A stretch of 64,000 bases of DNA. It comes from an uncultured Thermotogae bacterium (GTDB lineage Bacteria > Bipolaricaulota > Bipolaricaulia > UBA7950 > UBA9294). The notes under the pieces were generated by a model. It was not told the DNA's origin and ran no database searches. It saw only the letters and a list, made by a program, of their open reading frames with translations. Within the stretch, counting starts at the first letter, position 1. Each line of letters opens with the position of its first letter. The stretch is from the NCBI GenBank assembly GCA_964528085.1, contig CAZGRE010000002.1, positions 5,150-69,149 on the forward strand, read 5' to 3'. Shown here piece by piece: positions 5,014 through 30,295 of this stretch. A program made the translations under genes and the position numbers.

Positions 5014-5547
5014 GTGAAGAGACTAGCGATCATCATCTGCCTTCTCGTTTCCGTCCCCGTCCTCGCCTCCGAGGGGATCTTCTTCGGATTCTCGACCGGC
5101 CTCGTGCAGGGGGAGGCGGGGAGGACCGCGATCCTGATCGCGGGGGATGCGAACGCTTGGGAAGGGACGATCGTAAGGGGGATAACCCCGTATCTCGACC
5201 TTGCAGCGACGGGGGGGACGGAGTTCTCGATCGAGGGGAGGCTCCTCGCCATCGATCTTCCACCGATCGGAGGTCTCCTCACCGTGGCCCCCCGCGGATT
5301 CGCGGGGCTCATGCGGCTCTCCCTCGGCCCGGTACGCCTCGATATCTTCCGGCGTTTCGGGGATGAGGGAGAGCGCCGGTTCACCGTCAGCGTATTCCCC
5401 CTGGAGAGGGTCTTCTTTCTCGCCGGCTGGGAAGAGGCATCTCCGTTCCTCGCCCTGCGGGTGAATCCGTTGGCAGGAGGTGCCCTTTGGATCTCCATCC
5501 TTCTCGGCACGGGGCGTCTCTCAGTCGCAGTCGGAGGTGCGTTTTGA
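5014..5547 (+). CDS. Hypothetical secreted protein
   Basis: The ORF-track start at 4789 sits inside tilS and is low-complexity; a GTG at 5014 gives a classic signal peptide KRLAIIICLLVSVPVLASE followed by a beta-rich mature protein. Confidence 0.5.
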   Translation: MKRLAIIICLLVSVPVLASEGIFFGFSTGLVQGEAGRTAILIAGDANAWEGTIVRGITPYLDLAATGGTEFSIEGRLLAIDLPPIGGLLTVAPRGFAGLMRLSLGPVRLDIFRRFGDEGERRFTVSVFPLERVFFLAGWEEASPFLALRVNPLAGGALWISILLGTGRLSVAVGGAF

Positions 5548-12077: not shown

Positions 12078-12303
12078 AATCCCTCCTGTAGCTCGCGGTC
12101 TGCCGTGATTATAGCGGGGAGGGGGTGGGTTGGTCGATCGAGCCAGCTTGTTTTCTGAAACCGGGACGGTCATCGGAGGGTAGATCGATTGCGGGAGGGA
12201 GGACCTTCCGGGAAAGGAGGGTACCATGAAGAATCGACTGAGGGGAGTCCGGCTTCACTTTCGACGTTCATCGCGTTATAGTGGGAAAAAGGAGGTAATC
12301 GCC

Positions 12304-13143
12304 ATGACCGACCGCACTTCGGGCAGCCGGATGTTCGGGCGGCTGATCGTTCCAGTCCTTTTGGTGATCGTACTCGTATTTGTCGCCGCTTCGCCGGCAC
12401 GGAGGGTGATCGCACAGGAAGAGCCGTTCGTAGAGAGGGTCCTTCGAACCTTGACGCTCCTCCCCGAGGATTATCTCCCGGCGTTGGTCCGGCTGATGGG
12501 AGCCATGAATGAGGACGGTGCGCCGTTCTACCTTGCTATCGAGGCCGGGTATATGCCGCGGGAGTTTTTGGCGATGCAGGAGATCGTCGAGCCGATTGAG
12601 CTCTCTCCCAGCGCTTTTCAGATCACCGTATTCAACTTTGAGATCGACCCGGAGAGCGAGGAGGAGCCGTGGTTCAGCGTCGCTGAGCCGCTCGAGGACC
12701 TGGTCTACGATCCGAAGGGGATAGGGATCATGTACCCGAACGTCGGGATCTTCATCCAGGAGGCGCATGAGGCTCCGCCCGAGGGAGAGGCGAGGTTCAC
12801 CGCCGGCCCACCGACCGAGGAGATCGAGGATATGCTCGGCTTGACGGCCCGGCTGACCGGAGATGTGCTCGAGCGACTCCGGATGGTGATGAAGGACCTC
12901 GACCGGATGGATCCCGAGGATCCGATGCGGGTTGGATTCCTGAACAACGTGCGTGAGTTCCTCCTTCGGAGTGGGATCACGCTCCCTGCCTCCGATTATC
13001 GGATCGTTGCCCTCGACTTCCAACGGGCGGAGGCGTTCAACGCGGACATCCCGGATGAGGTGAGGCCAGGCCTCGCTGTCCTTCCGGAGGGGATCGGCGT
13101 ATTCTTCGATCGAATCGGGATCTTCGTTCAGCTTGCGATTTAG
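12304..13143 (+). CDS. Hypothetical secreted protein (first gene of the surface-protein array)
   Basis: ATG at 12304 with AAGGAGGT RBS at 9-nt spacing; N-terminal TM/signal LIVPVLLVIVLVFVAASPA; acidic mature protein. Confidence 0.6.
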   Translation: MTDRTSGSRMFGRLIVPVLLVIVLVFVAASPARRVIAQEEPFVERVLRTLTLLPEDYLPALVRLMGAMNEDGAPFYLAIEAGYMPREFLAMQEIVEPIELSPSAFQITVFNFEIDPESEEEPWFSVAEPLEDLVYDPKGIGIMYPNVGIFIQEAHEAPPEGEARFTAGPPTEEIEDMLGLTARLTGDVLERLRMVMKDLDRMDPEDPMRVGFLNNVREFLLRSGITLPASDYRIVALDFQRAEAFNADIPDEVRPGLAVLPEGIGVFFDRIGIFVQLAI

Positions 13144-13206
13144 TCACAGGATCAGGAAGGAGTGAATGTAGGGTTTCGTGGGGTTACGGGTAAGGGAGGA
13201 GGGCTG

Positions 13207-15417
13207 ATGCTCAGGGAGGCGGTCGGCGGTAAGGGATTGTTTAGCCTGAGGGGGGCCGTGACGGTCCCCCTTTTGATTCTCGTTGTTATGGTCGTGTCGG
13301 TGGCCGTTCGAGCGGACTCAGCCGTCGACATATCGGTTGAGACGATCCGGATCGATCGGTCTCCCGGTGCAGCGAGCGCGGAGGGCTCGCTCGGGTTGGA
13401 TCAGGGCCTCGTGGGGGACACCTTGCACGTGAGTGCCCTCGTCAAGAACGTGGGTACCTCTCCGGTCGGGCAGTTTAAGGTCGATTTCTTCTTCACCGAG
13501 ATGATATCCGGCGAACACGGAAGGATCGGCACACAGACGGTCCTCGGTCTCGATCCCGGGGGGGAGATCCGTCCGGTCGTGGTGGTCGACACCTCGACTT
13601 TCACCCCCGGGATATACGCGTTCTCCGCTGAGGCGGACCCTGACGGGTCATTGGGGGAGGATGAGGATAATCGCTGCAACAACATCGCTCCACGCGGTTC
13701 CTGCGCCGGTCAAGCGAAGGAGAGGCAGGACAAGTACAAGCTCACCCTCCTACGAGAAGGGAAATCGATCTCCGAGCTGAGCGTGACCCCGCGCTTCCCC
13801 GTCTGTCGGATGGGAAAGCTGGAGGAGACGATCACGGTTCACCTGTACAACGTCGGGACGGAGCCGTTGACCAAGGATGACGTCGAGGTCTGGGGCTACT
13901 ACAGGCTGGGACTCGACCCCCCTGCCGATCAATTCACGCCGCTCGTCGTCGATGCGGCGGAGAACCCCGTCCAGTTGTCGGTCAAGAGCTTCGCCGGTCT
14001 AGATCCCGGGAAGGACGGGTACATGACGATAGGCCTCAGCTTCGACGTATTCGACCGGTTGTTCGAGCCACGGAGCACGGAGGAGAATGAAGGGGAGGAC
14101 CTCGGTAATCCCTATCCCGTTCAGCTTCGGATGACGGTCAAGGTCGGAACCGACGAGAAGGACATCTTCCTCCCCGACCAGTTCCGCCTGGCGCAATTCT
14201 ATTCCGCGGTCGATCTGTGGACGTTCCCGGCAAGGCCGGTCTGTTCGTGTACAACTTATGAAGATATAGAGAGTATCTCCGTCCCTCCCGCTGTGGCCGG
14301 GGGGCTCGTCTTTCACGTCGTCTCGACCGCAGCTGGCGATCGGTTGCACGTGTTGAAGGTGAACACCGGCGAGGAGAAGGGGAGTTGGGAGGCGCCGAAC
14401 GGTATCGCCCTCACCTCCCCTGCTGCTTTCTATGATTCGACCGGGAATTCCTACCGGATCTACCTCGGCGGAAGCGACGGGAAGGTCTACTCCCTCCAAG
14501 GTGAGGAGAAGGAGGAGGGGGCGTTCCTGACGAGCCTATGGACGAGCCCCTCTGATATCGTCAGCCCGCCGAGGTCCGGAGGGGCGACGAGTTACCTCCG
14601 TCTTTCCTCCGATGGGACGAAGCTAATCGTCGGTTCGGAGAACGGCGTGTTCGTCCTCGATGCAGCGAGCGGCGATCTCCTCGGGAGCTATACCTCTTAC
14701 GGTCCGGTCAGCACGAAGCCGGCCTACGTCGATGCGACCGGCGCGATCTGGTTCGCGTCGGATGAGGAGATCTATGGAATCCTCCCGAACGGGTCCGAGT
14801 GCACGTACGACGTCAAGGATCGTGTAACGACTTCGCTTGAGCTGAACGGCACGGGGACGAGTCTCTTCTTCGGGACCGAGTCCGGCTCCGTTTACGCCGT
14901 TGATGCCGTTGTCGGCGGAGGGACCTGCACGGTTCTGGCGAGCGCCGATCCCCTGCGGACGGTCGTCGGGATGGCGGTCGCTACCGCGGAGGAGGATGCC
15001 GTCATCTACCTGACGAGTGACATCGGGGAGATCGCCCGCGTCGAGTATGACGAAAGGAAGGGGTTCACGCGGGTCACCACCTCCGAGAGGGATTTCGAGC
15101 CGACGAAGATCCTCGCCGCTCCCGCCATCCTCGAGAACAGGAAGGGCGATGACGCTGATGCCGTGCTGGTTGCAGGAGAATGGAAGGAGAAGGGGGCAAG
15201 GACGTTGCGGCCTGTCCTCCAAGGTTGGAAGAGCGATCTGACGGAGTACGAGACCGTCAAGATATGGGGGTCCTCCGTCTCCCTCGTCTTTGAACCGGAG
15301 GAGGACACCGTCATCCCGCAGGGCCTATTGATGCCGGTCATCGATCAGGATTGGAAGATACTCCTCGTCGCTTCCTCCGACGGGTATCTCTATGCATTCG
15401 ACCTGAGCGGAATTTAG
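13207..15417 (+). CDS. Secreted CARDB-domain protein with C-terminal PQQ-like beta-propeller
   Basis: ATG at 13207 with GGGAGGAGGG RBS; signal/TM VTVPLLILVVMVVSVAVRA; CARDB-type repeat (VSALVKNVGTSPVGQFKVDFFF...EDEDNRCNN); C-terminal propeller blades GKVYSLQG, NGVFVLDAASGDLLG, GSVYAVDA, DGYLYAFDLSG. Confidence 0.7.
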   Translation: MLREAVGGKGLFSLRGAVTVPLLILVVMVVSVAVRADSAVDISVETIRIDRSPGAASAEGSLGLDQGLVGDTLHVSALVKNVGTSPVGQFKVDFFFTEMISGEHGRIGTQTVLGLDPGGEIRPVVVVDTSTFTPGIYAFSAEADPDGSLGEDEDNRCNNIAPRGSCAGQAKERQDKYKLTLLREGKSISELSVTPRFPVCRMGKLEETITVHLYNVGTEPLTKDDVEVWGYYRLGLDPPADQFTPLVVDAAENPVQLSVKSFAGLDPGKDGYMTIGLSFDVFDRLFEPRSTEENEGEDLGNPYPVQLRMTVKVGTDEKDIFLPDQFRLAQFYSAVDLWTFPARPVCSCTTYEDIESISVPPAVAGGLVFHVVSTAAGDRLHVLKVNTGEEKGSWEAPNGIALTSPAAFYDSTGNSYRIYLGGSDGKVYSLQGEEKEEGAFLTSLWTSPSDIVSPPRSGGATSYLRLSSDGTKLIVGSENGVFVLDAASGDLLGSYTSYGPVSTKPAYVDATGAIWFASDEEIYGILPNGSECTYDVKDRVTTSLELNGTGTSLFFGTESGSVYAVDAVVGGGTCTVLASADPLRTVVGMAVATAEEDAVIYLTSDIGEIARVEYDERKGFTRVTTSERDFEPTKILAAPAILENRKGDDADAVLVAGEWKEKGARTLRPVLQGWKSDLTEYETVKIWGSSVSLVFEPEEDTVIPQGLLMPVIDQDWKILLVASSDGYLYAFDLSGI

Positions 15418-15469
15418 GCGGTTTAATTGCAGTGGTTTTTGGTATGATCCGTAGCTAAGTTAAGGGGGC

Positions 15470-18400
15470 ATGATGGGGCGAGGACGTTTCGGCAAGTGTC
15501 TGCTTCTCTTGGGTCTTCTTTCGATTGCGATTATTGTGGTCGGTGCCTACCCGGATGAGCCGCTCCCCGACTTGACGATCGACGGGGTGAGCTTCACTCC
15601 GCAAGGACCGGTCGTCCGCGGTGATCCGCTCTCGGCCGCAGTCGTCATCGTGCGTGCCGGTCAGCCGGTAGACGTGCCGGTCAGGGTTGAGATCAGCTGG
15701 CGGCGGCTGGATGCGGAGGGGGCGTGCGGTTCGGTAATTGAGACGCTCGCTTCCGATGAGGAGACGGTCGAGGTGAAGATCGACACCTCCCTCCTCACCC
15801 CTGGGACGTACGAGCTCGTCGCTCGCGTCGACCCGGAGGATCTGATCGCTGAGAGCGACGAGACGAACAACCGGGCTGTCTTCTACTTCGATGTCCTCCC
15901 TCCGAGGCCGGAGCTTCACCCGGTCAGCCTTAACGTCGACCCGGCCTCCCCGCTCGAGTGGGGGGAGACGGCGACGGTGACCGCTGGCGTCGAGAATACG
16001 GGGAGGCTTTCAGCGGGCGCGTTTCACGTCGAGTTCCTGCTGTTTCCCATCTATTGTCACGACCCGGATACAGGGGAGGCGTGGACGATCTCCGCTCTCG
16101 CTTCCGGTGATGGGGGAATGGCTACCTGGGTCTTCTCCGCGGTGGATGCCCCCCCCGCCGACCTCACCGAGCTGACGGCGGAGATCCCTCCTGGGGCGTG
16201 GATACCGTTTTCGTCCGTCAGGATCCCTGGCCTCGAGCGGGATCAGCAGATAGGGGTGAGTAACCCGTTCTGGACCGGCCAGCCGCTCCGTGATCTTCTT
16301 GCCGCAAGCGGCGAGAAGACGATCAGCGGTTCGATCATGACGCCGCTCAGTGACGACGAGCTGGAGCTTCTCGAGGGGTGCGTGACCACTTACGCGATCG
16401 AGATCCTCGTCGGGGAACCGGCTGGGATGCTCGAAGAGGATCCAATGAACAATCGTCTGAGAAGCGCTCTGACGGTGCAGCCATCGACCCTCGAACTCCC
16501 GGAGCTCGTCCCTGTTCAGATTACGTTCGACCGGGATCTTCCCCTCAACTGGGACGATGACATGGACGCTGAGGTCGTGGTGACGAACCGGGGCGGGAGT
16601 GGGGTACTGAGCGGGTTCGATGTCAGCTACTACTACCGCCGGTCGGGTGAGAGCGAATGGATATTCCTCGACAAGGAGAGGATCTCCCAGTTGGGGATCG
16701 AGGAGGATTCGAACACGGAGAGCGTCAAGGCGACGGTCGACGCCGATCCCAGTCGGCTCTCCCTGAGACCGGGGAGTTACGAGCTGCGGGTCGTCGTCGA
16801 CGAAGCGGACGTGATTCGAGAGCAGAACGAGGAGAACAACGAGCTGGTCGTTGGATTCTCCGTCAAGGGGAGCGAGATTCACCCGATCAGCCTCGACCTC
16901 CCCTCTGCGCCTGTCCATCAAGGGGATACGGTATCCGTCGTTGCCCTCGTGGAGAACACGGGGGAACTCAGCCTTCATGACTTCACCGTCGGCTTTTACG
17001 TCGACGACATCAGGTTCGACACCTTCTACTACCGTTCTCCGGAGAGCGAGGACGGTCTTGAGGAGGATGATAGGACGCGGGTGGAAGGGCTTCTCGATAC
17101 ATCCGATCTCCCGCCGGAGGAGTACACCCTCCGGGTGGTGATCGATCCGGACGACAGGATCCCCGAGCTCGACGAGGGGAACAACACGATCAGCGCTCCC
17201 CTCACGATCCTCCCTCCGCTCAAGCGGCAGGCCGAGCTTCAGCTGACCGGGGTCGATCTCTCACCGGCATCCCCGATCGGGGAGGGGAGTCGCCTCGTCG
17301 TCTCCGCGACCGTCAGGAACGCCGGGGATATCGATGCCGATCGGTTCCAGATCCGATTCGAGGTCTTACCGGTCGAAGGAGGGAGCGCTGTTGAACCTCA
17401 ACCGGGGGATCGGTTCTATATCACCCAGGACGTCCCCGGCCTGGCGCGCTCAGCGAGCCGCGTGATCCAGGTGACGTTCACGACCGATGATTGGCCGAAG
17501 GGATCATACGAGCTTCGCGTCCGCGTCGATCCGCCGTCAACGGATGAGCTCGGGGATCGGGGCGAGGTCGATGAGATCGATGAGCTGAACGATGAGATGA
17601 TCGTGTCGTTTGCGATCGGTCCCCCTCCCGCCGGTGAGGAAGGGGTGGGTCCGACCGATGCCCCGAACCTCGCGTTCGCTGATCTTGCGGTCAGCCCTTC
17701 GACATCGGTCGATGTGGGAACGCCGATCAAGGTCTCCGGGAGCGTCATCAATCGTGGGCGGAGGCCGGCCGGTCCGTTCAGGATCACGATAAAGTGGCTC
17801 GGCCCGGGCGGTGGAGGTTACACGGTCACGACCCAGGACGTCTCCGGCCTCGGAGTCGGGGAATCGGTCGCCATCATACCGGTGACGATCCAGACCTCGT
17901 TCCCGATGGGGACGTACCGGCTCGTGGCGACGGTCGACGCGCGCGCTGCGGTTGAAGAGCAGAACGAGGCCGATAACGAACGGACGATCGAAGTCACGGT
18001 CGGCGGCGGAGCGGGGATCCTCCCCGACCTCGTCCCGACCTCCATCCGCTTCGTCCCTCCCTCCGGCGCTCAGCTCGGCGAGCGGGTGATCGCCTACGTG
18101 ACCGTCCGCAATCAAGGGCCGCTCGCTGTCGGACCGTTCTCGATCGCGTTTACAACCCTGGCGGGGACCGATTACATAATCCGGGATGGCCTCGGCCCGC
18201 TCGGGGAGGTGGAGATCCCATATACCTTCCTTCCGACCGTGGCCGGGGAGTACGAGGTGTCGGTCGTCGTCGACCCGGACGATGCCCTGGCCGAATCGAA
18301 CGAGAAGAACAACGCGATTACGGGCTCGCTCGAAGTCGCTCCTCCGGCGAGGATAGAGGCGGTGGGGGTCGTTCATGACGACTCCCCGGTCAGGCTCCTC

Positions 18401-19417
18401 GCCGTCGATCGTCCTTCAGGGACGGTCTACGCTGCCTGGAGCAACGGGAAGGTGTGGGCGATCGGTCGGAATGGGGAGGTCAGGCTCCTGTTCGATGCCG
18501 GGGAGGGGATCACCGCTCTCGCCATCGATTCCGGCGCGAAGTCAGTCGTCTACGTCGGAACATCGGGGGGTAAGGTCGATAAGGTCGATGCTGCTACCGG
18601 CGAGCTGATCGTCGGATCGGCCCCGTTCGTCTCCCCTGTACGCGTCCTTGTCCTTGCCGGCGGCGGGGGGATCTACGTTGGGACGGAGGAGAGGCTCCTC
18701 CGCCTCGCCAGTGACCTTCAGGTCATTGCCGCGGTCGATGTGAGCGGTGGGATAGTCGATCTCGCATATGACGAGCCGCGGGAGACGGTCTATGCTGTAT
18801 CGCCGGACGGGCTGTATGCGTTCGATGCCGATCTTGCTGCCTTGAGCGATGTCTCCGGTTTTTATGGGAAGCTGAGCGCCCTCTCCCTCGGGAACAGCGG
18901 TCTGTTCGTCGGGACCGACGCCGGGGTCCTGTACGCGTACAGCTATTGCATGTCCCACGCCGGATCTCCGCCGATGATGCTCGCCGGATGGAGGTTTCCG
19001 AAGACGGGGACCCTCGAAGGGGGGATAACGTCGATCGTGGCTGCCGGGGGGACGGGGACAACGTATGTCGCGACCTCCGGCGGGAAGGTCTACGCGGTGA
19101 GCCTGACCGGGGAGTCGATCTGGACCTATCCGGCGATCGAAGGGGAGACGGTCTCTCCGATTCACTCCATCCCGGTGGTGGAAGGGCGATCGGGTCGTCT
19201 CTTCTTCGGTGATGATTCAGGGATACCCTACATTTTGGAGAGCAACGGTTCGCCGGCGTTCAGCGTAGACGCCTCGGCGACGGGTGGTGCGGCGATCCGC
19301 TCCGACCTCGTCGTCGACGAACGGCGAGAGGAGACGGAGTCGGGGAGGGTGTTGGTCCGCACCTATTACTACGGTGCGGAGGACGGTTGGGTTTACAGGA
19401 TCGATTCGCTTAAATAA
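15470..19417 (+). CDS. Giant secreted protein with about 7 tandem CARDB domains and a C-terminal PQQ-like beta-propeller
   Basis: 1315 aa; signal peptide; repeat units of about 110-120 aa, each ending in the CARDB signature DETNN/EENNE/EGNN/NEADNE/NEKNN; propeller blades KVWAIGRNGEV, GGKVDKVDAATGELI, DGLYAFDADL, GGKVYAVSLTGESIW, DGWVYRIDS. Confidence 0.75.
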   Translation: MMGRGRFGKCLLLLGLLSIAIIVVGAYPDEPLPDLTIDGVSFTPQGPVVRGDPLSAAVVIVRAGQPVDVPVRVEISWRRLDAEGACGSVIETLASDEETVEVKIDTSLLTPGTYELVARVDPEDLIAESDETNNRAVFYFDVLPPRPELHPVSLNVDPASPLEWGETATVTAGVENTGRLSAGAFHVEFLLFPIYCHDPDTGEAWTISALASGDGGMATWVFSAVDAPPADLTELTAEIPPGAWIPFSSVRIPGLERDQQIGVSNPFWTGQPLRDLLAASGEKTISGSIMTPLSDDELELLEGCVTTYAIEILVGEPAGMLEEDPMNNRLRSALTVQPSTLELPELVPVQITFDRDLPLNWDDDMDAEVVVTNRGGSGVLSGFDVSYYYRRSGESEWIFLDKERISQLGIEEDSNTESVKATVDADPSRLSLRPGSYELRVVVDEADVIREQNEENNELVVGFSVKGSEIHPISLDLPSAPVHQGDTVSVVALVENTGELSLHDFTVGFYVDDIRFDTFYYRSPESEDGLEEDDRTRVEGLLDTSDLPPEEYTLRVVIDPDDRIPELDEGNNTISAPLTILPPLKRQAELQLTGVDLSPASPIGEGSRLVVSATVRNAGDIDADRFQIRFEVLPVEGGSAVEPQPGDRFYITQDVPGLARSASRVIQVTFTTDDWPKGSYELRVRVDPPSTDELGDRGEVDEIDELNDEMIVSFAIGPPPAGEEGVGPTDAPNLAFADLAVSPSTSVDVGTPIKVSGSVINRGRRPAGPFRITIKWLGPGGGGYTVTTQDVSGLGVGESVAIIPVTIQTSFPMGTYRLVATVDARAAVEEQNEADNERTIEVTVGGGAGILPDLVPTSIRFVPPSGAQLGERVIAYVTVRNQGPLAVGPFSIAFTTLAGTDYIIRDGLGPLGEVEIPYTFLPTVAGEYEVSVVVDPDDALAESNEKNNAITGSLEVAPPARIEAVGVVHDDSPVRLLAVDRPSGTVYAAWSNGKVWAIGRNGEVRLLFDAGEGITALAIDSGAKSVVYVGTSGGKVDKVDAATGELIVGSAPFVSPVRVLVLAGGGGIYVGTEERLLRLASDLQVIAAVDVSGGIVDLAYDEPRETVYAVSPDGLYAFDADLAALSDVSGFYGKLSALSLGNSGLFVGTDAGVLYAYSYCMSHAGSPPMMLAGWRFPKTGTLEGGITSIVAAGGTGTTYVATSGGKVYAVSLTGESIWTYPAIEGETVSPIHSIPVVEGRSGRLFFGDDSGIPYILESNGSPAFSVDASATGGAAIRSDLVVDERREETESGRVLVRTYYYGAEDGWVYRIDSLK

Positions 19418-19452
19418 GCATGGTCGCGCAAGACGGAAGGGAGGCAAGGAGG

Positions 19453-22179
19453 ATGAAGAGAAAGGCTGTACTGGCGGTTGCGGTGCTGCTCTTGGGCCTC
19501 TCGATCGGCCTCGTTGGGCAGGGGATGGAGGAGTTTGCTGAACTGCACGTCACAAAGATCACCTTAGATCCTCCTTCCACGGTCACCCGCGGGGTGCAGG
19601 TCGAGGTTCATGCACGCGTGATGAACACGGGGACTCGGAGCGCTGATCGGTTCGACATCGGCTTCTTCTATCGGCTTCAGGGTAGCTCGGGGAGCTGGAT
19701 CCTGCTCGACAGGGTGGAGGGGGCGAGCCTTGCCCCGAGCCAGCAGGAGTTCCTCGATGTCGTCTTCGATATGGACACCCTTGATATGGCGCTCGGTACC
19801 TACGAGATCAGGGTTGTGGCCGATCTTACGAACGAAATCCCGGAGGTCGATGAGCTGAACAACGAGCTGCGGACGACGATGACGCTCGTCTCATCCTCGC
19901 TTGGCCTCCCCGACCTTCAGCCGGTAGAGCTGACTTACACCTCGACCAATCCTGGGAGCGACGATGACATGCTCCCCTGGAACGTCACCACGTCGATTAC
20001 GAACCTTGGGGAGGAGCAGGCCGGCCCGTTCAGCGTCGTCTTCCTGATCGAGGGCGTTGAATTCGACCGTAAGTTCCTGTTCGCTCTTCCAGCAGGAGGG
20101 TCGACCGAGCTCGTCGGGGAGCTCGACCCCTACGAGCTCGACCTCGGCCCGGGTTCGTACGAGATCACGGTGAGCGTCGATCCCGACGATGAGGTGAAGG
20201 AACAGGATGAGGCGAACAACGAGATATCCGGCTCGCTCACCCTTCTTTCCCCCGAGCTCTACCCGACGAGCCTCGCCTTCGATCGGTCGATCGTCCGGTT
20301 GGACGAGGAGGTTCAGGTTTCGGCTCAGATCAACAACAGCGGGAAGGGGCCGGCGAGCGGCGTCGAGGTCGCGTTCTACGTGAACCACATCCGGTTCGCC
20401 ACACAGACGATCGAGCTTCTCGACCGCGGGTTGAGCACCGTCGTCTCCGGGACCCTGAATCCGGAGAAGCTCGGGTTGACCGATGCCTCGGCCGTTTACG
20501 AGATCAAGGTCGTCGTCGATCCTGACAACGCATTCGACGAGCTCGACGAGGCGAACAACGAGATGATTCGGCCTCTTACGATACTCGCTCCGGAGCCGAA
20601 GCGGCCGGAGATCCATCCGGAGAGCATCGAGCTGAGCCCTCCTTCCCCGGCTGAACTGGGAAGGGCCGCCACGGTGACGGTGTCGACGGTGATAAAGAAC
20701 ACAGGGAGGGCCGTTGCCGATAGGTTCAACGTCGGCTTCTACTATCGGGTGAAGGGAGGCCTCCGTTGGGAGCTCTTCGCATGCAGTGACGAGGAGAGCT
20801 GCAGCGAGGTCAGCCTCAGCCCTGGAGGGCAGATCAAGCTGGTCGGGAGGCTTCCGATCGCCGCGGTCGGACCGGGGATCTACGAGATCCGTGTCCTCGC
20901 CGATTCACAGGACGTGGTCGACGAGCTCGACGAGACGAACAACGAGCTCGTTACGACGTTGACCCTCCTCGCTTCCCGCCTTCCGGATCTTTCGTTCTGC
21001 ATGATGCAGCCGGTTGTGGTCGAGCCCTCGGTTCAGGTCCAACACGGCCAGACGCTCCGCCTCTCCGCATGCGTGACGAACGTTGGGGATCGGGATGCAG
21101 GGGGATTCCTCATCCGCTTCTCCTACTGCCGCGTGAGCGAGGCGGCCGATGGCGCCCCGGCGTGTACCGAGCCGAGCGAGTACAGGACGGCCTACTTCAC
21201 CCCTGGGGCTGAGGTTGAAGTTCAGGGGCTAGCGATCGGGGAGACTGTCCGGGTTCCGGTGTCCCTTGAGACGCGCGACCTCGATCCGGGTCAGTACAAC
21301 ATCCTTGTCCAGATCGACCCTGCGACCGGCTCAGCGAGCGATGGGATGGTTGAGGAGCGTAACGAGCAGAACAACACGACCGTCGTTCAGGTCTCGGTCC
21401 TCGGACCGGACCTGACCGTCGTCGACTTCCGCTCGGAGCCGGAGAGCATCGTTAATAGCGGTGAATCCGTGGAGGTTTCAGCGACGGTTATGAACATCGG
21501 CGTCGAGCCGGCCGGCGGGTTTACGGTCGGGTTCAAGCTCCTCAGGGTAGGCGAGACGACCGAGCCGGTTCGGATCTGGAGCTGCTCGAACGATGAGGCG
21601 ACCGAGTGCATCGGCCCTGAGTACTTCGGGCAGGCGCGGCTCCCCGGGATCGATGTCCTCGTGCCTGAGGAGGTGCGATGCAGCCTCGATACGAGCGGTA
21701 TTGAGGCGGGTGAATACGTCCTCCGCGTCGAGGTTGACGTGAAGGATGCGGTTGTCGAGCACACCGAGATGAACAACTTCGCTGAGATTCCGCTTTTGAT
21801 CGTCGGCGAAGGGGAGGAGGCCATCAGCGAGGGGGCCGATCTGGCCATCGAATCGTTTCGCATCTATAAGATGGGTATGCGCTCGGACGAAGTGCGGTTA
21901 TGGGTGACGCTCATCAATATAGGGAGCACGGACGTTGGCCCGTTTGAAGTTAGTTTCTTCTGTATAAATTCTTCTGCTGCAGAACCGGTTTTCCTTGGTT
22001 CGTGGACCGTGCGCGGTCTTGCAGCTGGGGCAGAAGTAACAATCGTCCGGTCCTTGAATACGTCGACTCTTTCACCCGGAGCGTATGCTGTGGGAGTTAT
22101 TGTCGATTCTGCGAACGCCATTGTCGAGGTGAATGAGGAGAATAATACACAAGAAGGGACCCTCTGGATCCATTATTAG
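19453..22179 (+). CDS. Secreted protein with about 7 tandem CARDB domains
   Basis: ATG at 19453 after GGGAGG/AGGAGG; signal peptide MKRKAVLAVAVLLLGLSIGLVG; repeats ending DELNNE, DEANNE (twice), DETNNE, NEQNNT, TEMNNF, NEENNT. Confidence 0.75.
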   Translation: MKRKAVLAVAVLLLGLSIGLVGQGMEEFAELHVTKITLDPPSTVTRGVQVEVHARVMNTGTRSADRFDIGFFYRLQGSSGSWILLDRVEGASLAPSQQEFLDVVFDMDTLDMALGTYEIRVVADLTNEIPEVDELNNELRTTMTLVSSSLGLPDLQPVELTYTSTNPGSDDDMLPWNVTTSITNLGEEQAGPFSVVFLIEGVEFDRKFLFALPAGGSTELVGELDPYELDLGPGSYEITVSVDPDDEVKEQDEANNEISGSLTLLSPELYPTSLAFDRSIVRLDEEVQVSAQINNSGKGPASGVEVAFYVNHIRFATQTIELLDRGLSTVVSGTLNPEKLGLTDASAVYEIKVVVDPDNAFDELDEANNEMIRPLTILAPEPKRPEIHPESIELSPPSPAELGRAATVTVSTVIKNTGRAVADRFNVGFYYRVKGGLRWELFACSDEESCSEVSLSPGGQIKLVGRLPIAAVGPGIYEIRVLADSQDVVDELDETNNELVTTLTLLASRLPDLSFCMMQPVVVEPSVQVQHGQTLRLSACVTNVGDRDAGGFLIRFSYCRVSEAADGAPACTEPSEYRTAYFTPGAEVEVQGLAIGETVRVPVSLETRDLDPGQYNILVQIDPATGSASDGMVEERNEQNNTTVVQVSVLGPDLTVVDFRSEPESIVNSGESVEVSATVMNIGVEPAGGFTVGFKLLRVGETTEPVRIWSCSNDEATECIGPEYFGQARLPGIDVLVPEEVRCSLDTSGIEAGEYVLRVEVDVKDAVVEHTEMNNFAEIPLLIVGEGEEAISEGADLAIESFRIYKMGMRSDEVRLWVTLINIGSTDVGPFEVSFFCINSSAAEPVFLGSWTVRGLAAGAEVTIVRSLNTSTLSPGAYAVGVIVDSANAIVEVNEENNTQEGTLWIHY

Positions 22180-22303
22180 CATCGGATATGGAATTTCCTT
22201 CGTCCTTGAGGGGGAGTGCGGCTGAAGGGGGGAGCCGATAACCGGCGGTTCACCTTTTTCTGAAACGAAGGTGGAGCTTTCGGTGTATAGTTGAATAACG
22301 GAG

Positions 22304-22885
22304 GTGAGAGCTGTGAGGCGATATGTTGGTGTTGCGTTGGTCCTTTTGGTCGTGTCAGTAGCTATGTTCAGCGTGGCTGCGGCTACCTCGACGGTTTATG
22401 GAACCCGCTTCAAGGTGGGAGAGACGATCCAGTTCAAGATCGAGGATTCCACGATCTGGTGGGGGGGCTGCTGCTGTTGCACATCCTGTACGGAGACTTC
22501 CGTCCTCGGATGGCATATCACCAACAGCGCAGGGCAGACGATCTACAACGCCATCAATGATGCCCCTGTCCCTGCGTCAAGCTGGGTCGGGACCTGGACG
22601 CAGATCGACGCGAACGACAACCCCGTCGGCGCAGGACAGTACATGCTCTACGTTGATACGTCCATCGGCACGCTGTCGCGCTGTTTCACGATCTACGATC
22701 CGTGCGGGTGTAACTATCCGTACTGGTGTAACGCGTGTACGTGCGAGGAGCTCCCGTCGATAACGAACTGCGGGTGCAAGACGACGCTCGTGTTCGTAGA
22801 TACGTGCCAGAACTGTTATTTCCCGTTCTTCTGGTGGTTCGGATGCTGCTCTTCGCCGTGCAGTAGCTGCGCAGGTTCTCCGTAG
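22304..22885 (+). CDS. Small secreted cysteine-rich protein (20 Cys, CCCC motif); start may be the GTG at 22313
   Basis: GTG starts at 22304/22313 after GGAGG; signal peptide VGVALVLLVVSVAMFSVAAA; mature protein has GGCCCCTSCTE and a C-terminal CGCNYPYWCNACTCEE...CGCK...CQNCYFPFFWWFGCCSSPCSSC. Confidence 0.6.
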   Translation: MRAVRRYVGVALVLLVVSVAMFSVAAATSTVYGTRFKVGETIQFKIEDSTIWWGGCCCCTSCTETSVLGWHITNSAGQTIYNAINDAPVPASSWVGTWTQIDANDNPVGAGQYMLYVDTSIGTLSRCFTIYDPCGCNYPYWCNACTCEELPSITNCGCKTTLVFVDTCQNCYFPFFWWFGCCSSPCSSCAGSP

Positions 22886-22946
22886 AGAGAATCCCGGGGG
22901 TCTTGAACGCCTACCTCGCAGCTGATACGCTTCTTTGTAGAGGCTT

Positions 22947-23029
22947 GCGAGGGTGGCGGAACTGGCAGACGCGCTAGCCTTAGGAGCTAGTGCCTTCGGG
23001 CGTGCGGGTTCGAATCCCGCCCTTCGCAT
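22947..23029 (+). tRNA. tRNA-Leu (anticodon TAG)
   Basis: Cloverleaf with long variable arm; anticodon loop CTTAGGA; acceptor GCGAGGG/CCCTTCGC; T-loop GGTTCGAATCC. Confidence 0.8.
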
Positions 23030-23069
23030 TTGAAGCTCCGTTGCGGACGGGCTATAATGTTGAGCTCAA

Positions 23070-23144
23070 GCGGGAATAGCTCAGCGGTAGAGCACTGCCT
23101 TGCCAAGGCAGGGGTCGCGGGTTCAAATCCCGTTTCCCGCTCCA
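23070..23144 (+). tRNA. tRNA-Gly (anticodon GCC), CCA encoded
   Basis: GCGGGAATAGCTCAGCGGTAGAGCA...anticodon loop TTGCCAA...GGTTCAAATCC...CCA. Confidence 0.85.
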
Positions 23145-23169
23145 AGCATCGAGCCGGGGAATGCCGACA

Positions 23170-23253
23170 GCCGGGATGGCGGAATTGGCAGACGCAAGGG
23201 ACTTAAAATCCTTTGAGGGTTTCCTCGTGCGGGTTCGACTCCCGCTCCCGGCA
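23170..23253 (+). tRNA. tRNA-Leu (anticodon TAA)
   Basis: GCCGGGATGGCGGAATTGGCAGACGC...anticodon loop CTTAAAA; long variable arm; GGTTCGACTCC; acceptor TCCCGGC. Confidence 0.8.
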
Positions 23254-23267
23254 AAACGAGAAGATAC

Positions 23268-23344
23268 CGCGGGGTGGAGCAATCTGGAAGCTCGTCGGGC
23301 TCATAACCCGGAGGTTGCCGGTTCGAATCCGGCCCCCGCAACCA
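23268..23344 (+). tRNA. Initiator tRNA-fMet (anticodon CAT), CCA encoded
   Basis: Near-identical to canonical bacterial tRNA-fMet (CGCGGGGTGGAGCA...CTCATAACCCG...GGTTCGAATCCGGCCCCCGCAACCA); unpaired C1:A72; three consecutive G-C pairs in the anticodon stem. Confidence 0.9.
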
Positions 23345-23349
23345 GACGA

Positions 23350-23424
23350 GGCGGCGTAGCTCAACCGGTTTAGAGCGCTCGGCTCATATCCGAGAGGTTC
23401 GGGGTTCGAGTCCCTGCGCCGCTA
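23350..23424 (+). tRNA. tRNA-Met (anticodon CAT; elongator Met or lysidine-modified Ile2, not distinguishable by eye)
   Basis: GGCGGCGTAGCTCAACCGGTTTAGAGCG...anticodon loop CTCATAT...GGTTCGAGTCC; acceptor closes with a G1:U72 wobble. Confidence 0.7.
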
Positions 23425-23432
23425 GTGATTTT

Positions 23433-23506
23433 GGGGGCGTAGCTCTAATCGGGAGAGCGCTGCGTTCGCAACGCAGAGGTTGGCGGTTCGAATCCGCTCG
23501 CCTCCA
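23433..23506 (+). tRNA. tRNA-Ala (anticodon CGC)
   Basis: GGGGGCGTAGCTC...anticodon loop TTCGCAA...GGTTCGAATCC; G3:U70 alanine identity pair. Confidence 0.85.
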
Positions 23507-23548
23507 CACTTTCCTCCAGGTTTCCTTTTCTCCAAACCCTCAAAGGAA

Positions 23549-23604: not shown

Positions 23605-24864
23605 CTACCAGCTCAGCCTGACTGAGAGCTTCCAGGCGGTAAAACCGGTTGTATCCACCGTGATCGAGCTAGACATACGGATTGAGGAGCCCAAGGCGAG
23701 GGTGACGCCCATCGTGCTCTGTGCCCAATCGAAAAGGAGACCGGTGGATGTGCTGAAGAACGTGTCCGCTGAGAAGGAGAACCCGCTTCCAAAAGGAGGT
23801 ACATCGACGGTGAGTGAGACGATCTCCCAATAGTCTTGGGGGTAGTAGATGTGCCCCTCTGTGATTGCTTCAGTGAGCGGTTCGACGACCGAGCCGAAGG
23901 CAGGGGTTGTGATCACGTAGTCGGTTGTATTCAGGTTCGAGATGCTGGTAAGGGAGGCTCCACCTATCTCCGCGGTAAACTTTATCCCGTAGATTTCAAG
24001 TGCGGTGATCGTCCCTCCGCTTTCAAGGAGGTTCGTATAAACAGATAGACAACCGTAGTCTGTCTCTAGCGATGGGGAGAACGTGTAGCTTGCCGACTGG
24101 AGGGTATAGGTGAAGTCGAGGACGAGGTTGAAAGGGATTCCGAATAGATGCAGGAAAGAGAGCTCGATCTCTTCACTTTCAAACCCTGTCTTCCCGAAAC
24201 TGGTTGTGCTCGACAGTTCGACACAGGTGAAAGCGTTGGCGGTGAACGTGAGATCCGCCCCGCAGAAGTAAGCCGGGATCGGCTCAATTGTTGGATCAGT
24301 CTCATACGTCTTCGACAGCACCGAGGGATCGGTATGGTCTCCCGTAGCGGTGAACGTGATTCCACTTAGATCCGCTCCGAAGTATATAGCGCTCTCGAAG
24401 GTAAAAAACCCGTCGATGATCTCTCCGTATAGATCGACTACGTACCCGTAGTTCACCGGTTCCGACTGTGTCTCTCCGACCATTGCTCCGTACAGGCTCA
24501 GCGTGAGGGGTGGGATCAAGACGGCCATTCTCCCCTGAGCGTAAAGGAATGAGCCACTCTGCGGCTCAAACAACAACTGCCCCGAGAAGCTAACTGGCCC
24601 TAACGCTGCGTCAAGGTCGAATTCTTGCCAGAGCCAGCCGTCAAATACGAAATCCGAGATGCTTGAAATCTCCAAGAAATCTAGGTGGAGTCCGACATCG
24701 AGCGTCGATTGGAAAGAGGTGAACGGCCTTGTCTGTTGGGGGGAGAGACCGATTTCGGCGAACCAACTGCCGGTGATGTATTCGCTTCCTCCGTTGTTTC
24801 CGGTTGCGATGACAAACGCCCCTAAGACTAATGCGATCGCGATCAGCAAGCCTCTGATGTTCAC
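23605..24864 (-). CDS. Hypothetical secreted beta-rich protein
   Basis: 419 aa; signal peptide MNIRGLLIAIALVLGAFVIATG; S/T/G-rich mature protein with alternating beta-strand pattern. Confidence 0.55.
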   Translation of the reverse strand: MNIRGLLIAIALVLGAFVIATGNNGGSEYITGSWFAEIGLSPQQTRPFTSFQSTLDVGLHLDFLEISSISDFVFDGWLWQEFDLDAALGPVSFSGQLLFEPQSGSFLYAQGRMAVLIPPLTLSLYGAMVGETQSEPVNYGYVVDLYGEIIDGFFTFESAIYFGADLSGITFTATGDHTDPSVLSKTYETDPTIEPIPAYFCGADLTFTANAFTCVELSSTTSFGKTGFESEEIELSFLHLFGIPFNLVLDFTYTLQSASYTFSPSLETDYGCLSVYTNLLESGGTITALEIYGIKFTAEIGGASLTSISNLNTTDYVITTPAFGSVVEPLTEAITEGHIYYPQDYWEIVSLTVDVPPFGSGFSFSADTFFSTSTGLLFDWAQSTMGVTLALGSSIRMSSSITVDTTGFTAWKLSVRLSW

Positions 24865-27861: not shown

Positions 27862-28665
27862 ATGAAGGGGCTAGCGATTGGTCTGCTTGTAATCCTGCTG
27901 GGCGGCGCTGCTACGAGCGCTGGTCAGCTTGAGATGTCGATCGGCGGTGGACCGACCGCGATCTCCCTCAAAGGGATCAACGGATCGATCGGCGTCATCA
28001 ACACGGTTATCGATCTTCTAAACGAAACGTTCGCCATCCATCCGGATGTCACCGGCTCGGTCGACAGCCTCAAACCGATGTCGAGCGGGCTCGCCCTTTG
28101 CGCGGAGGAGCGCTACTGGCTGACCGATTGGTTCGCGTTCGGCGGGAGGTTCGAGTACCTCCGCTCCACGAGCGCCGTCTCGGGTGAATACCACGGGAGC
28201 GAGGTCTCGACGATCGACATCGCGCTCGACCTGAACGGGATCGGGCTCGTCCTCGGCGCCCGGGTGGTCTTCCTCGATATGGGGCTCGTCCTCGCCGCTG
28301 AAGGGGGAGTCGGCTACTACTACACGATGTTCGACCGCTCGATCACATTCGAGATCCCTTCCGAATACCCGGATGTGATATCCGTCGTCCCTCCCGAGGG
28401 GGAAGGACGCTACACCGGCGGAACGTTCGGCCTCGAGCTCGGCATCTCCCTCTACTACAGGATTGCTCCCTGGTTTTCAATAGGATCCAGCGTTTCATAT
28501 CGAAGTGGGTCGATCGAAGCCCCGTCCGATCGGGACGGGGATGGGCTCGATCTCGATGGAGATGGGGTGACGGAGGGGATTGACCTCGATGGGGTCTCGG
28601 TTCAGTTTACATTCTCTGTGAGTATCGATCTCGCCCTGACCGGGGAGAAAGGAGTGGCACAATGA
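27862..28665 (+). CDS. Hypothetical outer-membrane beta-barrel-like protein
   Basis: Signal peptide MKGLAIGLLVILLGGAATSAG; alternating aromatic/hydrophobic beta strands (WFAFGGRFEY, GYYYTMF, LYYRIAPWFSIGSSVSY); Asp-Gly repeats DRDGDGLDLDGDG. Confidence 0.5.
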   Translation: MKGLAIGLLVILLGGAATSAGQLEMSIGGGPTAISLKGINGSIGVINTVIDLLNETFAIHPDVTGSVDSLKPMSSGLALCAEERYWLTDWFAFGGRFEYLRSTSAVSGEYHGSEVSTIDIALDLNGIGLVLGARVVFLDMGLVLAAEGGVGYYYTMFDRSITFEIPSEYPDVISVVPPEGEGRYTGGTFGLELGISLYYRIAPWFSIGSSVSYRSGSIEAPSDRDGDGLDLDGDGVTEGIDLDGVSVQFTFSVSIDLALTGEKGVAQ

Positions 28666-29339
28666 GGGCTGCTAGGTTCTGTCTGCTTATCGTTGCGGCG
28701 ATCATCGTCGCTGTTTCGCTCAGCGGGTGCCTGATGAAGGACACGCATCCGAAGGCGGTGTTCACCGCCTCGCGCGCTGAGCAAGTGGTCCCGTTCACGG
28801 TCAGTTTCGATGGGACCCCCTCCTACAAGCCGAACGGGAAGATCGCTTCCTATCTTTGGACGTTCGGGGACGGGGCGGCCGATACCGGACCGGTCGTCGA
28901 TCATACCTACGTGGAGGATGGCGACTACGAGGTCCGCCTGACCGTGATCGACGAGGAAGGGATGTCGACCTCAAGCACGTTGACCGTCCACGCGCTCAAC
29001 CCTCCTCCGTCGGCCGAGTTCTCCTACAGTCCGAAGAGCAACATGGAGGGGGAGTACGTCGTCGGCGCGAGCGAGTGGATAACCTTCGACGGGACGGAGT
29101 CGACGGACGACGGTGAGGTCATGACTTACGAGTGGAACTTCGGTGACGGTACGACCGACTCCGGCCCCATCGTCCAGCATCGCTACCTGTATCCGGGGAC
29201 GTACAACGTCGTCCTCACCGTGACGGATAACGATGGAGGGAAGTCGAACTACGTGGAGAAGGTGACGATCGTCGGGGGGCCTCCGTGCAACGCCGATATC
29301 ACCGGGGATGTAACGTGGAACAGCGGGGGGCACAAATGA
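28662..29339 (+). CDS. PKD-domain lipoprotein (two PKD domains)
   Basis: Lipobox LSGC; two copies of the PKD signature WTFGDG / WNFGDG...Y.V.LTVTD. Confidence 0.8.
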   Translation: MRAARFCLLIVAAIIVAVSLSGCLMKDTHPKAVFTASRAEQVVPFTVSFDGTPSYKPNGKIASYLWTFGDGAADTGPVVDHTYVEDGDYEVRLTVIDEEGMSTSSTLTVHALNPPPSAEFSYSPKSNMEGEYVVGASEWITFDGTESTDDGEVMTYEWNFGDGTTDSGPIVQHRYLYPGTYNVVLTVTDNDGGKSNYVEKVTIVGGPPCNADITGDVTWNSGGHK

Positions 29340-30295
29340 CAAAGAGGCTGCTTATCATCGGGTTACTTCTCTCTCCGCTCTTCCTCTCTGGGTGCGTTCT
29401 CGACACGATCCTAAGCGATGTTGTCAATCATCCGCCGACGGCTGTTATCGATGCGTCGCCGTTGAGTGGGCCGGCCCCGCTCACCGTGTCGCTCGATGCC
29501 CACTTCTCTCACGACGAAGACGGCTCGATCATCGAGTACCACTGGGAGGTGGGGGATCCGGCGGCGACCGGTCCGCTCACCGGGAGTGCGTGCGAGTACA
29601 CGTTTACAAATCCCGGGACCTACCTCGTCAAGCTGACCGTGGTCGACGATGACGGGGCGAGCGACTCACAACAGGTCGCAATCGTCGTCACGAATGCCCC
29701 TCCGGTCGCCCAGGCGAAGGCGAACAAGACCTCCCCCTACCCAGGGGTCGAGGTAACGTTCAGCGCCGAGGGATCATACGACTACGACGGGACGATCGTC
29801 GACTACCGCTGGGATTTCGGGGACGGCGGATCGGCGATCGGTGAGACGGTGACCCACACCTATGCCGAAGGCGGCTACTACGTCGTCACCCTCGTCGTCA
29901 CCGACGATGAGGGGGCGAAGGGGTCGACCCATTTCGGGATCAACGTCCTCCCCGGGCACAGCAACTGCACGACCCCCCCGGCCGGTGGGGGTTCGTGTAA
30001 CGGCTCGTCGGTCACCCCGCTTGCCGTGATCACCGGCCTCCCCTCTTGTAGCGGGGGGGAGGCAGGGGTACCGCTTACGTTCGATGGGACCGCTTCCCGT
30101 CCGGCTGTCGGGAAGATCGTGACCTACCAGTGGGATTTCGGTGATGGCACGACCGCGACCGGTCCTGTCGTCACGCACACCTACACGAAGGCGTGGACGT
30201 ACATGGTCACTCTGACGGTCGTTGACGAGGGCGGAGGGGTCGGGACCGCGATCGGCTCTTGTCCGATCAGCGGAGGCACCTGCACCGGGGAATAG
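29336..30295 (+). CDS. PKD-domain lipoprotein (three to four PKD domains)
   Basis: ATG at 29336 overlapping the previous stop; lipobox FLSGC; repeated WEVGD/WDFGDG...TLVVTDDEG motifs. Confidence 0.8.
   Translation: MTKRLLIIGLLLSPLFLSGCVLDTILSDVVNHPPTAVIDASPLSGPAPLTVSLDAHFSHDEDGSIIEYHWEVGDPAATGPLTGSACEYTFTNPGTYLVKLTVVDDDGASDSQQVAIVVTNAPPVAQAKANKTSPYPGVEVTFSAEGSYDYDGTIVDYRWDFGDGGSAIGETVTHTYAEGGYYVVTLVVTDDEGAKGSTHFGINVLPGHSNCTTPPAGGGSCNGSSVTPLAVITGLPSCSGGEAGVPLTFDGTASRPAVGKIVTYQWDFGDGTTATGPVVTHTYTKAWTYMVTLTVVDEGGGVGTAIGSCPISGGTCTGE

Follow-up and report, generated by a model that had tools for sequence, protein, structure and literature searches.

The Deinococcus surface-layer (S-layer) protein HPI is built of immunoglobulin (Ig)-like domains, and giant proteins with many CARDB units, a family of the E-set Ig-like clan, are frequent, one unit of the kind described here having matches in 2649 cluster representatives. 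In Thermococcales, the large secreted multi-Ig protein of the VARTIG module carries a C-terminal Ig domain that varies through recombination between strains (Makarova et al. 2021, PMC8416519). Candidatus Bipolaricaulota is a deep-branching and almost uncultured phylum, whose polar toga-like sheaths and S-layer have only just been imaged, with no proteins assigned to them. Its first cultured member bears a hexagonal S-layer, spaced at 6.25 nm, on toga-like sheaths, and the proteins of this layer were not named (bioRxiv 10.1101/2025.11.21.689855), and the Ran1 genome is without lipopolysaccharide genes, no adhesins having been recognised in it (PMC6092417). Searches of a literature library for Bipolaricaulota or Acetothermia together with CARDB found no paper. 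Here we describe a predicted operon of four genes, A to D, in a stretch of 64,000 nucleotides from an uncultured Thermotogae bacterium of the Bipolaricaulota lineage (GenBank GCA_964528085.1, contig CAZGRE010000002.1, forward-strand positions 5,150 to 69,149), which is referred to as the window throughout.

Taken as a whole, the locus is best explained if the products of A to D build an envelope structure, a Sec-exported and acidic scaffold, and we put the probability of this reading at roughly 0.6. The operon combines known domain types in an organisation not yet described, including one orphan family, and it provides concrete candidate genes for the envelope of Bipolaricaulota. A preliminary description of the same DNA had seen in it five exported proteins encoded in a row, three of them giant CARDB proteins, and had offered recent duplication, antigenic variation or, as the last alternative, an envelope scaffold operon; it is this last alternative that gives the best reading of the exported CARDB and propeller proteins.

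Organisation and distribution of the A–D genes

Five open reading frames (ORFs), A to E, follow one another on the plus strand, as the preliminary description had stated, with gaps of 18, 52, 2 and 124 nt (Table 1). In all five proteins, which it had described as exported, the N-terminus is basic and runs into a hydrophobic segment that is helical in the models and is kept in orthologues together with its small-residue sites. The five frames have a GC content at third codon positions (GC3) of 0.74-0.78 in a genome of 62% GC, which fits genuine coding sequence. Contigs from other assemblies and related loci, numbered with an L, bear out that the frames are unbroken: L011 is 99.7% identical with zero indels, the indels of L005 within genes are all in-frame, and L033 encodes an identical D protein. 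Apparent frameshifts in L006 and L007 were rejected, the breaks being N-runs at scaffold joins. Proteins A to D are strongly acidic, with D+E against K+R counts of 47/23, 107/62, 201/90 and 145/61, respectively. The neighbours of the array are bacterial housekeeping genes (RseP, TilS, YebC, PrpD, Iso_dh, UvrA and UvrB).

The preliminary description had classed the array as an accessory unit, a view that finds no support, as all related loci of sufficient length show the cassette. Over about 16 Bipolaricaulota genomes, these loci are L012, L014 and 12 of the 14 that a species-level scan of genomes returned for an aligned set of A proteins, and the order A-B-C-D is fixed in all of them. Across these loci A has ~277 aa, B 723-777, C 1236-1360 and D 917-1109 aa, and gene A is 37-58% identical to that of the window. 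GlnRS precedes the cassette in L012, and in L014 (GCA_040961015.1) an M20 peptidase lies on one side of it and a sensor kinase on the other. The sister species L030/L032, with a B 74% identical, has the exact neighbourhood of the window with Iso_dh and E flanking the cassette. Homologues of A, B and E were found in metagenome-assembled genomes (MAGs) only, and the named ones are mostly Candidatus Bipolaricaulota or Bipolaricaulia; several others bear the label "uncultured Thermotogae bacterium", and one is assigned to Candidatus Atribacteria. The A protein has a 100% identical counterpart on an NCBI contig of 69.7 kb. B has 49 full-length orthologues of 724-765 aa and 46-98% identity. From these comparisons, A-B-C-D appears to be an old, vertically inherited operon of Candidatus Bipolaricaulota-type genomes.

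Table 1. Features of the array and its surroundings in the window (positions in nucleotides of the 64,000-nt stretch)
Feature	Position	Strand	Remarks
Promoter-like site	12254-12282	+	TTCACT-17-TATAGT, upstream of gene A; consensus match
Gene A	12304-13143	+	279 aa
Gene B	13207-15417	+	736 aa (751 aa from GTG at 13162)
B, N-terminal helix		+	signal or anchor
B, CARDB	13324-13695	+
B, second beta-sandwich	~13738-14226	+
B, propeller	~14269-15414	+	BamB/PQQ-like
Gene C	15470-19417	+	1315 aa
C, signal peptide		+
C, seven CARDB units	15557-18340	+
C, propeller	~18341-19414	+	PQQ_2/BamB-like
Gene D	19420-22179	+	919 aa (908 aa from ATG at 19453)
D, signal peptide		+
D, seven CARDB units	19528-22176	+	back to back; no other domain
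Replaced module	21816-22245	+	last CARDB unit of D (D7) and 3' untranslated region up to terminator left arm
Terminator-like hairpin and T-run	22232-22262	+	between D and E; consensus match
Gene E	22304-22885	+	193 aa, 19 Cys
Six-tRNA cluster	22946-23507	+	Leu(tag)-Gly(gcc)-Leu(taa)-Met-Met-Ala(cgc)

The start of gene A is placed at 12304 on the basis of a strong Shine-Dalgarno sequence (AAGGAGGT, 7 nt 5' of the ATG), the database gene call and the N-termini of orthologues. The longest ORF of gene A begins at 12226 and overlaps by 2 nt the start codon of the divergent Iso_dh gene, which ends at 12227. At the other end a terminator-like hairpin, whose stem is perfect in the strain contig L005, separates D from E. 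Since the A-D block recurs in different neighbourhoods, the hairpin follows D and E is kept with a tRNA block, we take A-D to be the functional unit and E a neighbour; by the promoter-like site and the hairpin the unit would extend from 12254 to 22262. The five-gene unit of the preliminary description is abandoned on the same grounds, as E is syntenic with the tRNA block in relatives, where the CARDB cassette lies elsewhere.

The product of gene A has a signal peptide with a conserved AxA/QEEP junction and a ~115-aa alpha+beta domain in tandem duplicate, the halves of which are homologous (hhalign 99.6%, E 1e-24). The family was found only in Bipolaricaulota-type MAGs and is an orphan, with a fold without known relatives. 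One MAG, CAYUSW01, holds two A-B(-C) loci (L016 and L023), whose A proteins are 58% and 47% identical to that of the window; either the operon is present twice there or the bin is mixed.

Domains of B, C and D

As had been predicted, B, C and D all match the CARDB model PF07705 above its gathering score of 22.7 bits: B with one unit at 27.1 bits, C with seven units at 213.8 bits (E 3e-64) and D with seven units at 277.4 bits (E 5e-84). A hidden Markov model (HMM) made from the D units finds these 15 units (1+7+7) again and no further ones in any frame of the 64-kb window. The description of all three as multi-CARDB proteins thus applies to C and D, but not to B, in which a single CARDB unit is followed by a second beta-sandwich. 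Likewise, the acidic E-x-N-N signature reported about 15 times corresponds to 15 units, but its strict form occurs 11 times (four in C, seven in D) and is degenerate in the other four. C unit 2, with ~195 aa compared to ~115 aa in the other units, contains an extra stretch.

Besides CARDB, B and C carry a propeller, and here the preliminary assignment of PQQ-type propellers to two of the large proteins is borne out by matches to known propeller structures and, in B, by a model. The AlphaFold model of B (predicted local distance difference test score, pLDDT, 84.2; predicted template-modelling score, pTM, 0.71) comprises an N-terminal helix, the CARDB sandwich, the second beta-sandwich and the propeller. 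In it the CARDB unit (residues ~40-145; modelled for B only) is all-beta with a pLDDT of ~87-91 and has an Ig-like beta-sandwich fold. The model superposes on the designed propellers Cake8/9 and on BamB with target-normalised TM scores of 0.64-0.76, those for Cake8 and BamB being 0.68-0.76. In the PDB, the C-termini of B and C find matches among designed PQQ-like propellers as well as in 3hxj, YxaL and BamB: the B profile matches Cake10 at 1e-25, 3hxj at 3e-10 and BamB 4imm at 5e-3, and the C-terminus of C matches Cake10 at 8e-15. C scores 29.1 bits with PQQ_2, narrowly over the cut-off of 27.6, and B scores 34 with Beta-prop_ACSF4 against a cut-off of 133. The two propellers are 24-26% identical to each other, and that of B is modelled as an eight-blade-type, BamB/PQQ-like propeller.

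BamB proper (TIGR03300), a lipoprotein of outer-membrane assembly, was rejected: its model asks for at least 285 bits, of which C reaches 19.6, and B gave no match. No L-x-[AG]-C lipobox was found in B, C or their orthologues. Matches to Lysyl_oxidase, TcfC, A2M and PorU-related models were judged to be short Ig-like or acidic-motif cross-matches and no true domains.

Age of the CARDB duplications

The preliminary description had suggested recent duplication from the tandem arrangement of the three large genes. When the units are aligned with each other and with those of related genomes, a different picture arises. Within the window the units share 21-44% identity, whereas 13 of the 15 find their best match in the positionally equivalent unit of the same gene in L012 and L014 (42-71% identity); this difference indicates that the duplications are ancient. 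For C6 and C7 the positional best match holds for L012 only, the positional unit of L014 not being among the top matches, and the last unit of D is the other exception. Orthologues have as many units, with the same boundaries, save in one lineage in which D has 1079 aa and eight CARDB units, the extra one near the C-terminal end (L012 17291-20530, L020 17174-20413). DNA repeats in the array are at most 93 nt long at 60-75% identity and coincide with the motif Y-E-x-x-V-x-V-D-P-D...E-x-N-N. The alignments argue for three ancient paralogues with fixed and probably distinct roles rather than for a recent expansion.

Strain variation and the last unit of D

The window aligns collinearly, at 94-99.7% identity, with four contigs of other assemblies, none of which has gained or lost a unit. 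Compared with L005, the ratio of nonsynonymous to synonymous substitutions (dN/dS) is 0.07 for B, 0.16 for C, 0.30 for D and 0.05 for E, so that selection on B, C and D is purifying. The excess of D is confined to one module, consisting of the last CARDB unit (D7) and the 3' untranslated region, in which ~36% of nucleotides differ from the strain contigs, against 1-2% elsewhere, with sharp boundaries on both sides. Over units 1-6 of D, the window and L005 share 96-100% identity, and each of them shares 81-91% with L030; in unit 7, L005 and L030 are 79% identical, whereas that of the window is 52-56% identical to either. The D7 of the window has a GC content of 0.51 and a GC3 of 0.54, compared with 0.59-0.64 and 0.76-0.85 in all other units. 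The identical D protein, with this allele, also came out of a separate assembly of run SRR15988953 (L033), which makes an assembler artefact unlikely.

D7 is thus a module replaced by a foreign version, the donor of which was not identified by our searches: among the 2649 CARDB cluster representatives matched, none exceeds 41% identity, and there was no phage match. A metagenome scan gave no match to an exact 33-mer of the window allele and, queried with D units 5-6, no more strain variants of D; two D7 alleles are known in this species. The 64-kb window holds no second copy of D7, and the substitutions are not adenine-specific, each of the four bases being affected and every codon position. 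These two points argue against a silent cassette or a diversity-generating retroelement, although reverse transcriptase was not specifically searched for.

Phase or antigenic variation, also put forward in the preliminary description, finds no counterpart in the array, in which there are no simple-sequence tracts, no longer or closer repeats than those given above and no extra units, and in which the strains are collinear. Its proposal of diversification fares better, if more narrowly than worded: the last unit of D has been replaced in this strain and is the least conserved in most pairs of orthologues (8 of 9). Identity to orthologues drops along D from the N- to the C-terminal end, from 50-57% in D1-D4 through 42-44% in D5-D6 to 31% in D7; in C, it is 58-62% in units 3-4 and 32-34% in units 6-7 and the propeller.

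Proposed function and alternative explanations

We infer the export, assembly, location and role of the A-D proteins as follows. The four proteins would assemble outside the cytoplasmic membrane into an envelope structure of fixed stoichiometry. If each Ig domain adds ~4 nm, a rod of seven units comes to ~25-30 nm, and the CARDB rods of this length may serve as spacers or fibrils, with the propellers of B and C as putative hubs for protein-protein docking. The conserved N-terminal parts would form a cell-proximal core and the C-terminal end of D an exposed tip, which evolves fastest and in this strain has been exchanged by recombination. The structure would most likely be a part of the surface coat or toga-like sheath, for which the operon is a reasonable candidate. 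One can go further and speculate that A-D are the very proteins that make up the toga of Bipolaricaulota and the hexagonal S-layer on it, with CARDB rods as spacers and the terminal unit of D as the exposed face, exchanged by recombination, that phages or predators meet. An eight-bladed propeller is ~5 nm across, close to the 6.25 nm lattice spacing; even so, we consider this specific assignment rather improbable.

Several points weigh against an envelope scaffold. Neither the Pfam and NCBIfam scans of A-E nor motif checks brought up an SLH domain or other anchoring family, a lipobox, a sortase signal or a transmembrane segment at the C-terminus, no dedicated secretion system is encoded beside the operon, and a Sec signal alone leads to the periplasm in a diderm-like cell. 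The D7 replacement is a single event in one sample. Shuffled sequence gives promoter- and terminator-like matches about as often as the real one, and the genome scan behind the distribution used only two peptide patterns.

An alternative is that the proteins are periplasmic machinery, with propellers that act like BamB in outer-membrane protein assembly or with rods that hold a toga-like sheath off the cell body. In Thermotoga, the Omp-alpha rod is thought to hold the outer sheath away from the cell body. The exclusive presence of Sec signals with no adjacent secretion system, the BamB-like propeller fold, the automatic name "BamB" that source databases give to B, and the toga-like envelope in the phylum would all suit such a role; the failure of the BamB equivalog model and the missing lipobox speak against it, and a fast-evolving terminal unit replaced by recombination is explained more easily by an exposed surface. 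We regard periplasmic machinery as unlikely.

The locus could instead have variability as its main function, as in a self/non-self or conflict module like VARTIG, with a C-terminal domain exchanged for kin recognition or as a target of phages or predators. The exchange of D7 for a divergent, low-GC version with sharp boundaries would suit such a module, as would a last unit that is least conserved in most orthologue pairs, and VARTIG has a similar C-terminal Ig variability that arises by inter-strain recombination (PMC8416519). Yet gene order and content are fixed and not shuffled, no small Ig cassettes, toxins or immunity genes lie downstream, the replacement is one event beside a gradual divergence of the last unit in other clades, and the overall dN/dS of D is 0.30. 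A conflict module is therefore quite unlikely in our judgement.

Still less can be said for the array as a recently duplicated, diversifying set of adhesins with phase or antigenic variation, within a five-gene accessory island that includes the cysteine-rich protein. CARDB units are common to the three large proteins and the strain difference in the last D unit is sharp, but paralogous units are more distant from each other than from their positional orthologues, the cassette is conserved across genomes, simple-sequence tracts are absent, no DNA repeat exceeds 75% identity or 93 nt, copy number is constant in the four strain contigs with no silent CARDB cassettes in 64 kb, and E is unlinked in relatives; this explanation is largely refuted and very improbable. 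Finally, we give almost no credence to secreted enzymes, either PQQ-dependent dehydrogenases or lysyl-oxidase-like proteins, as the Pfam matches above cut-offs do not carry them: PQQ_2 is the BamB-type propeller family and not the dehydrogenase family, the Lysyl_oxidase (PF01186) matches are partial, reaching over positions 156-192 of the 204 in the model and containing 0-1 significant stretches, and lie on the repeated acidic E-x-N-N motif, and the best structural matches are non-enzymatic propellers.

Gene E and the downstream region

The preliminary description ended the array in a cysteine-rich protein, and E fits that description: behind a signal peptide it has a beta-rich domain, which carries a motif of the WWWGCC type, and then a tail rich in cysteine that terminates in CP. 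Its 68 homologues are 47-99% identical, have ~185-195 aa and belong to no Pfam family; an exact-sequence look-up of E gave no match, and gene callers place its start three residues downstream. The order of the six tRNA genes is kept directly 3' of E in the distant relatives L001 and L003. In distant relatives, the same gene on the minus strand as in the window comes after E and the tRNAs, and next to it are genes for an RNA methyltransferase, PCMT, an aminotransferase, PKD proteins and UvrA; the 5' side of E differs, with an ABC peptide transporter in one relative and an amidase and xanthine dehydrogenase in another. In GCA_040961015.1, E and the A-D cassette (L014) are on different contigs. 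E is a separate gene that belongs with the tRNA cluster and is an unrelated neighbour of A-D. A general tie of E to giant surface proteins was considered and rejected, as the large gene 3' of E in L008 is without CARDB or any other Pfam family.

Some further observations concern this region. The E family always terminates in CP, and the C orthologues of one clade (L014, L017, L018, L021 and L022) end in RGGCP, which the C of the window does not; a C-terminal signal shared by the E family and these orthologues is possible. A 57-aa gene is called on the minus strand just 5' of E in L001 (9652-9825), L003 (9720-9893) and L008 (2710-2883); the window, with a D-E gap of just 124 nt, is without a counterpart. 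At 23605-24864 the minus strand encodes a 419-aa protein of no Pfam family, syntenic right after the tRNA cluster in relatives, where it has 424-461 aa. At 27862-30295 on the plus strand, a 267-aa protein with a weak outer-membrane beta-barrel match (E 1e-4, below cut-off) is followed by two PKD-repeat proteins; this second conserved trio of surface proteins is also present in L001 and L003.

Comparison with known systems

The locus shows that a tandem array of repeat-protein genes is by itself no sign of recent duplication or antigenic variation, as comparison of orthologues domain by domain makes clear. C and D resemble known CARDB surface proteins (PF07705), with seven units each that score well over the cut-off; unlike in other CARDB giants, a whole lineage here keeps the number and order of units and the partner genes constant, and the genes form an operon of four with the orphan A family. 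The C-termini of B and C share fold and repeat type with BamB/PQQ-like propellers (PF13360; 3q7m, 4imm, 3hxj and YxaL 7dxn), but unlike BamB they are not lipoproteins, are fused to CARDB and fail the BamB equivalog model.

With the S-layer proteins made of Ig arrays, such as Deinococcus HPI and those of archaeal S-layers, A-D have in common that they would be exported, acidic and multi-Ig, a likeness of architecture only. The VARTIG module of Thermococcales resembles D in having a large, secreted protein of many CARDB-related Ig domains with a variable C-terminal Ig that is exchanged between strains (PMC8416519). VARTIG loci are shuffled and have variable small Ig genes downstream, whereas the operon described here is rigid, without cassettes and bacterial. 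With its clear-cut boundaries, the replacement of D7 is a bacterial case of the exchange of a terminal Ig domain known from archaeal VARTIG.

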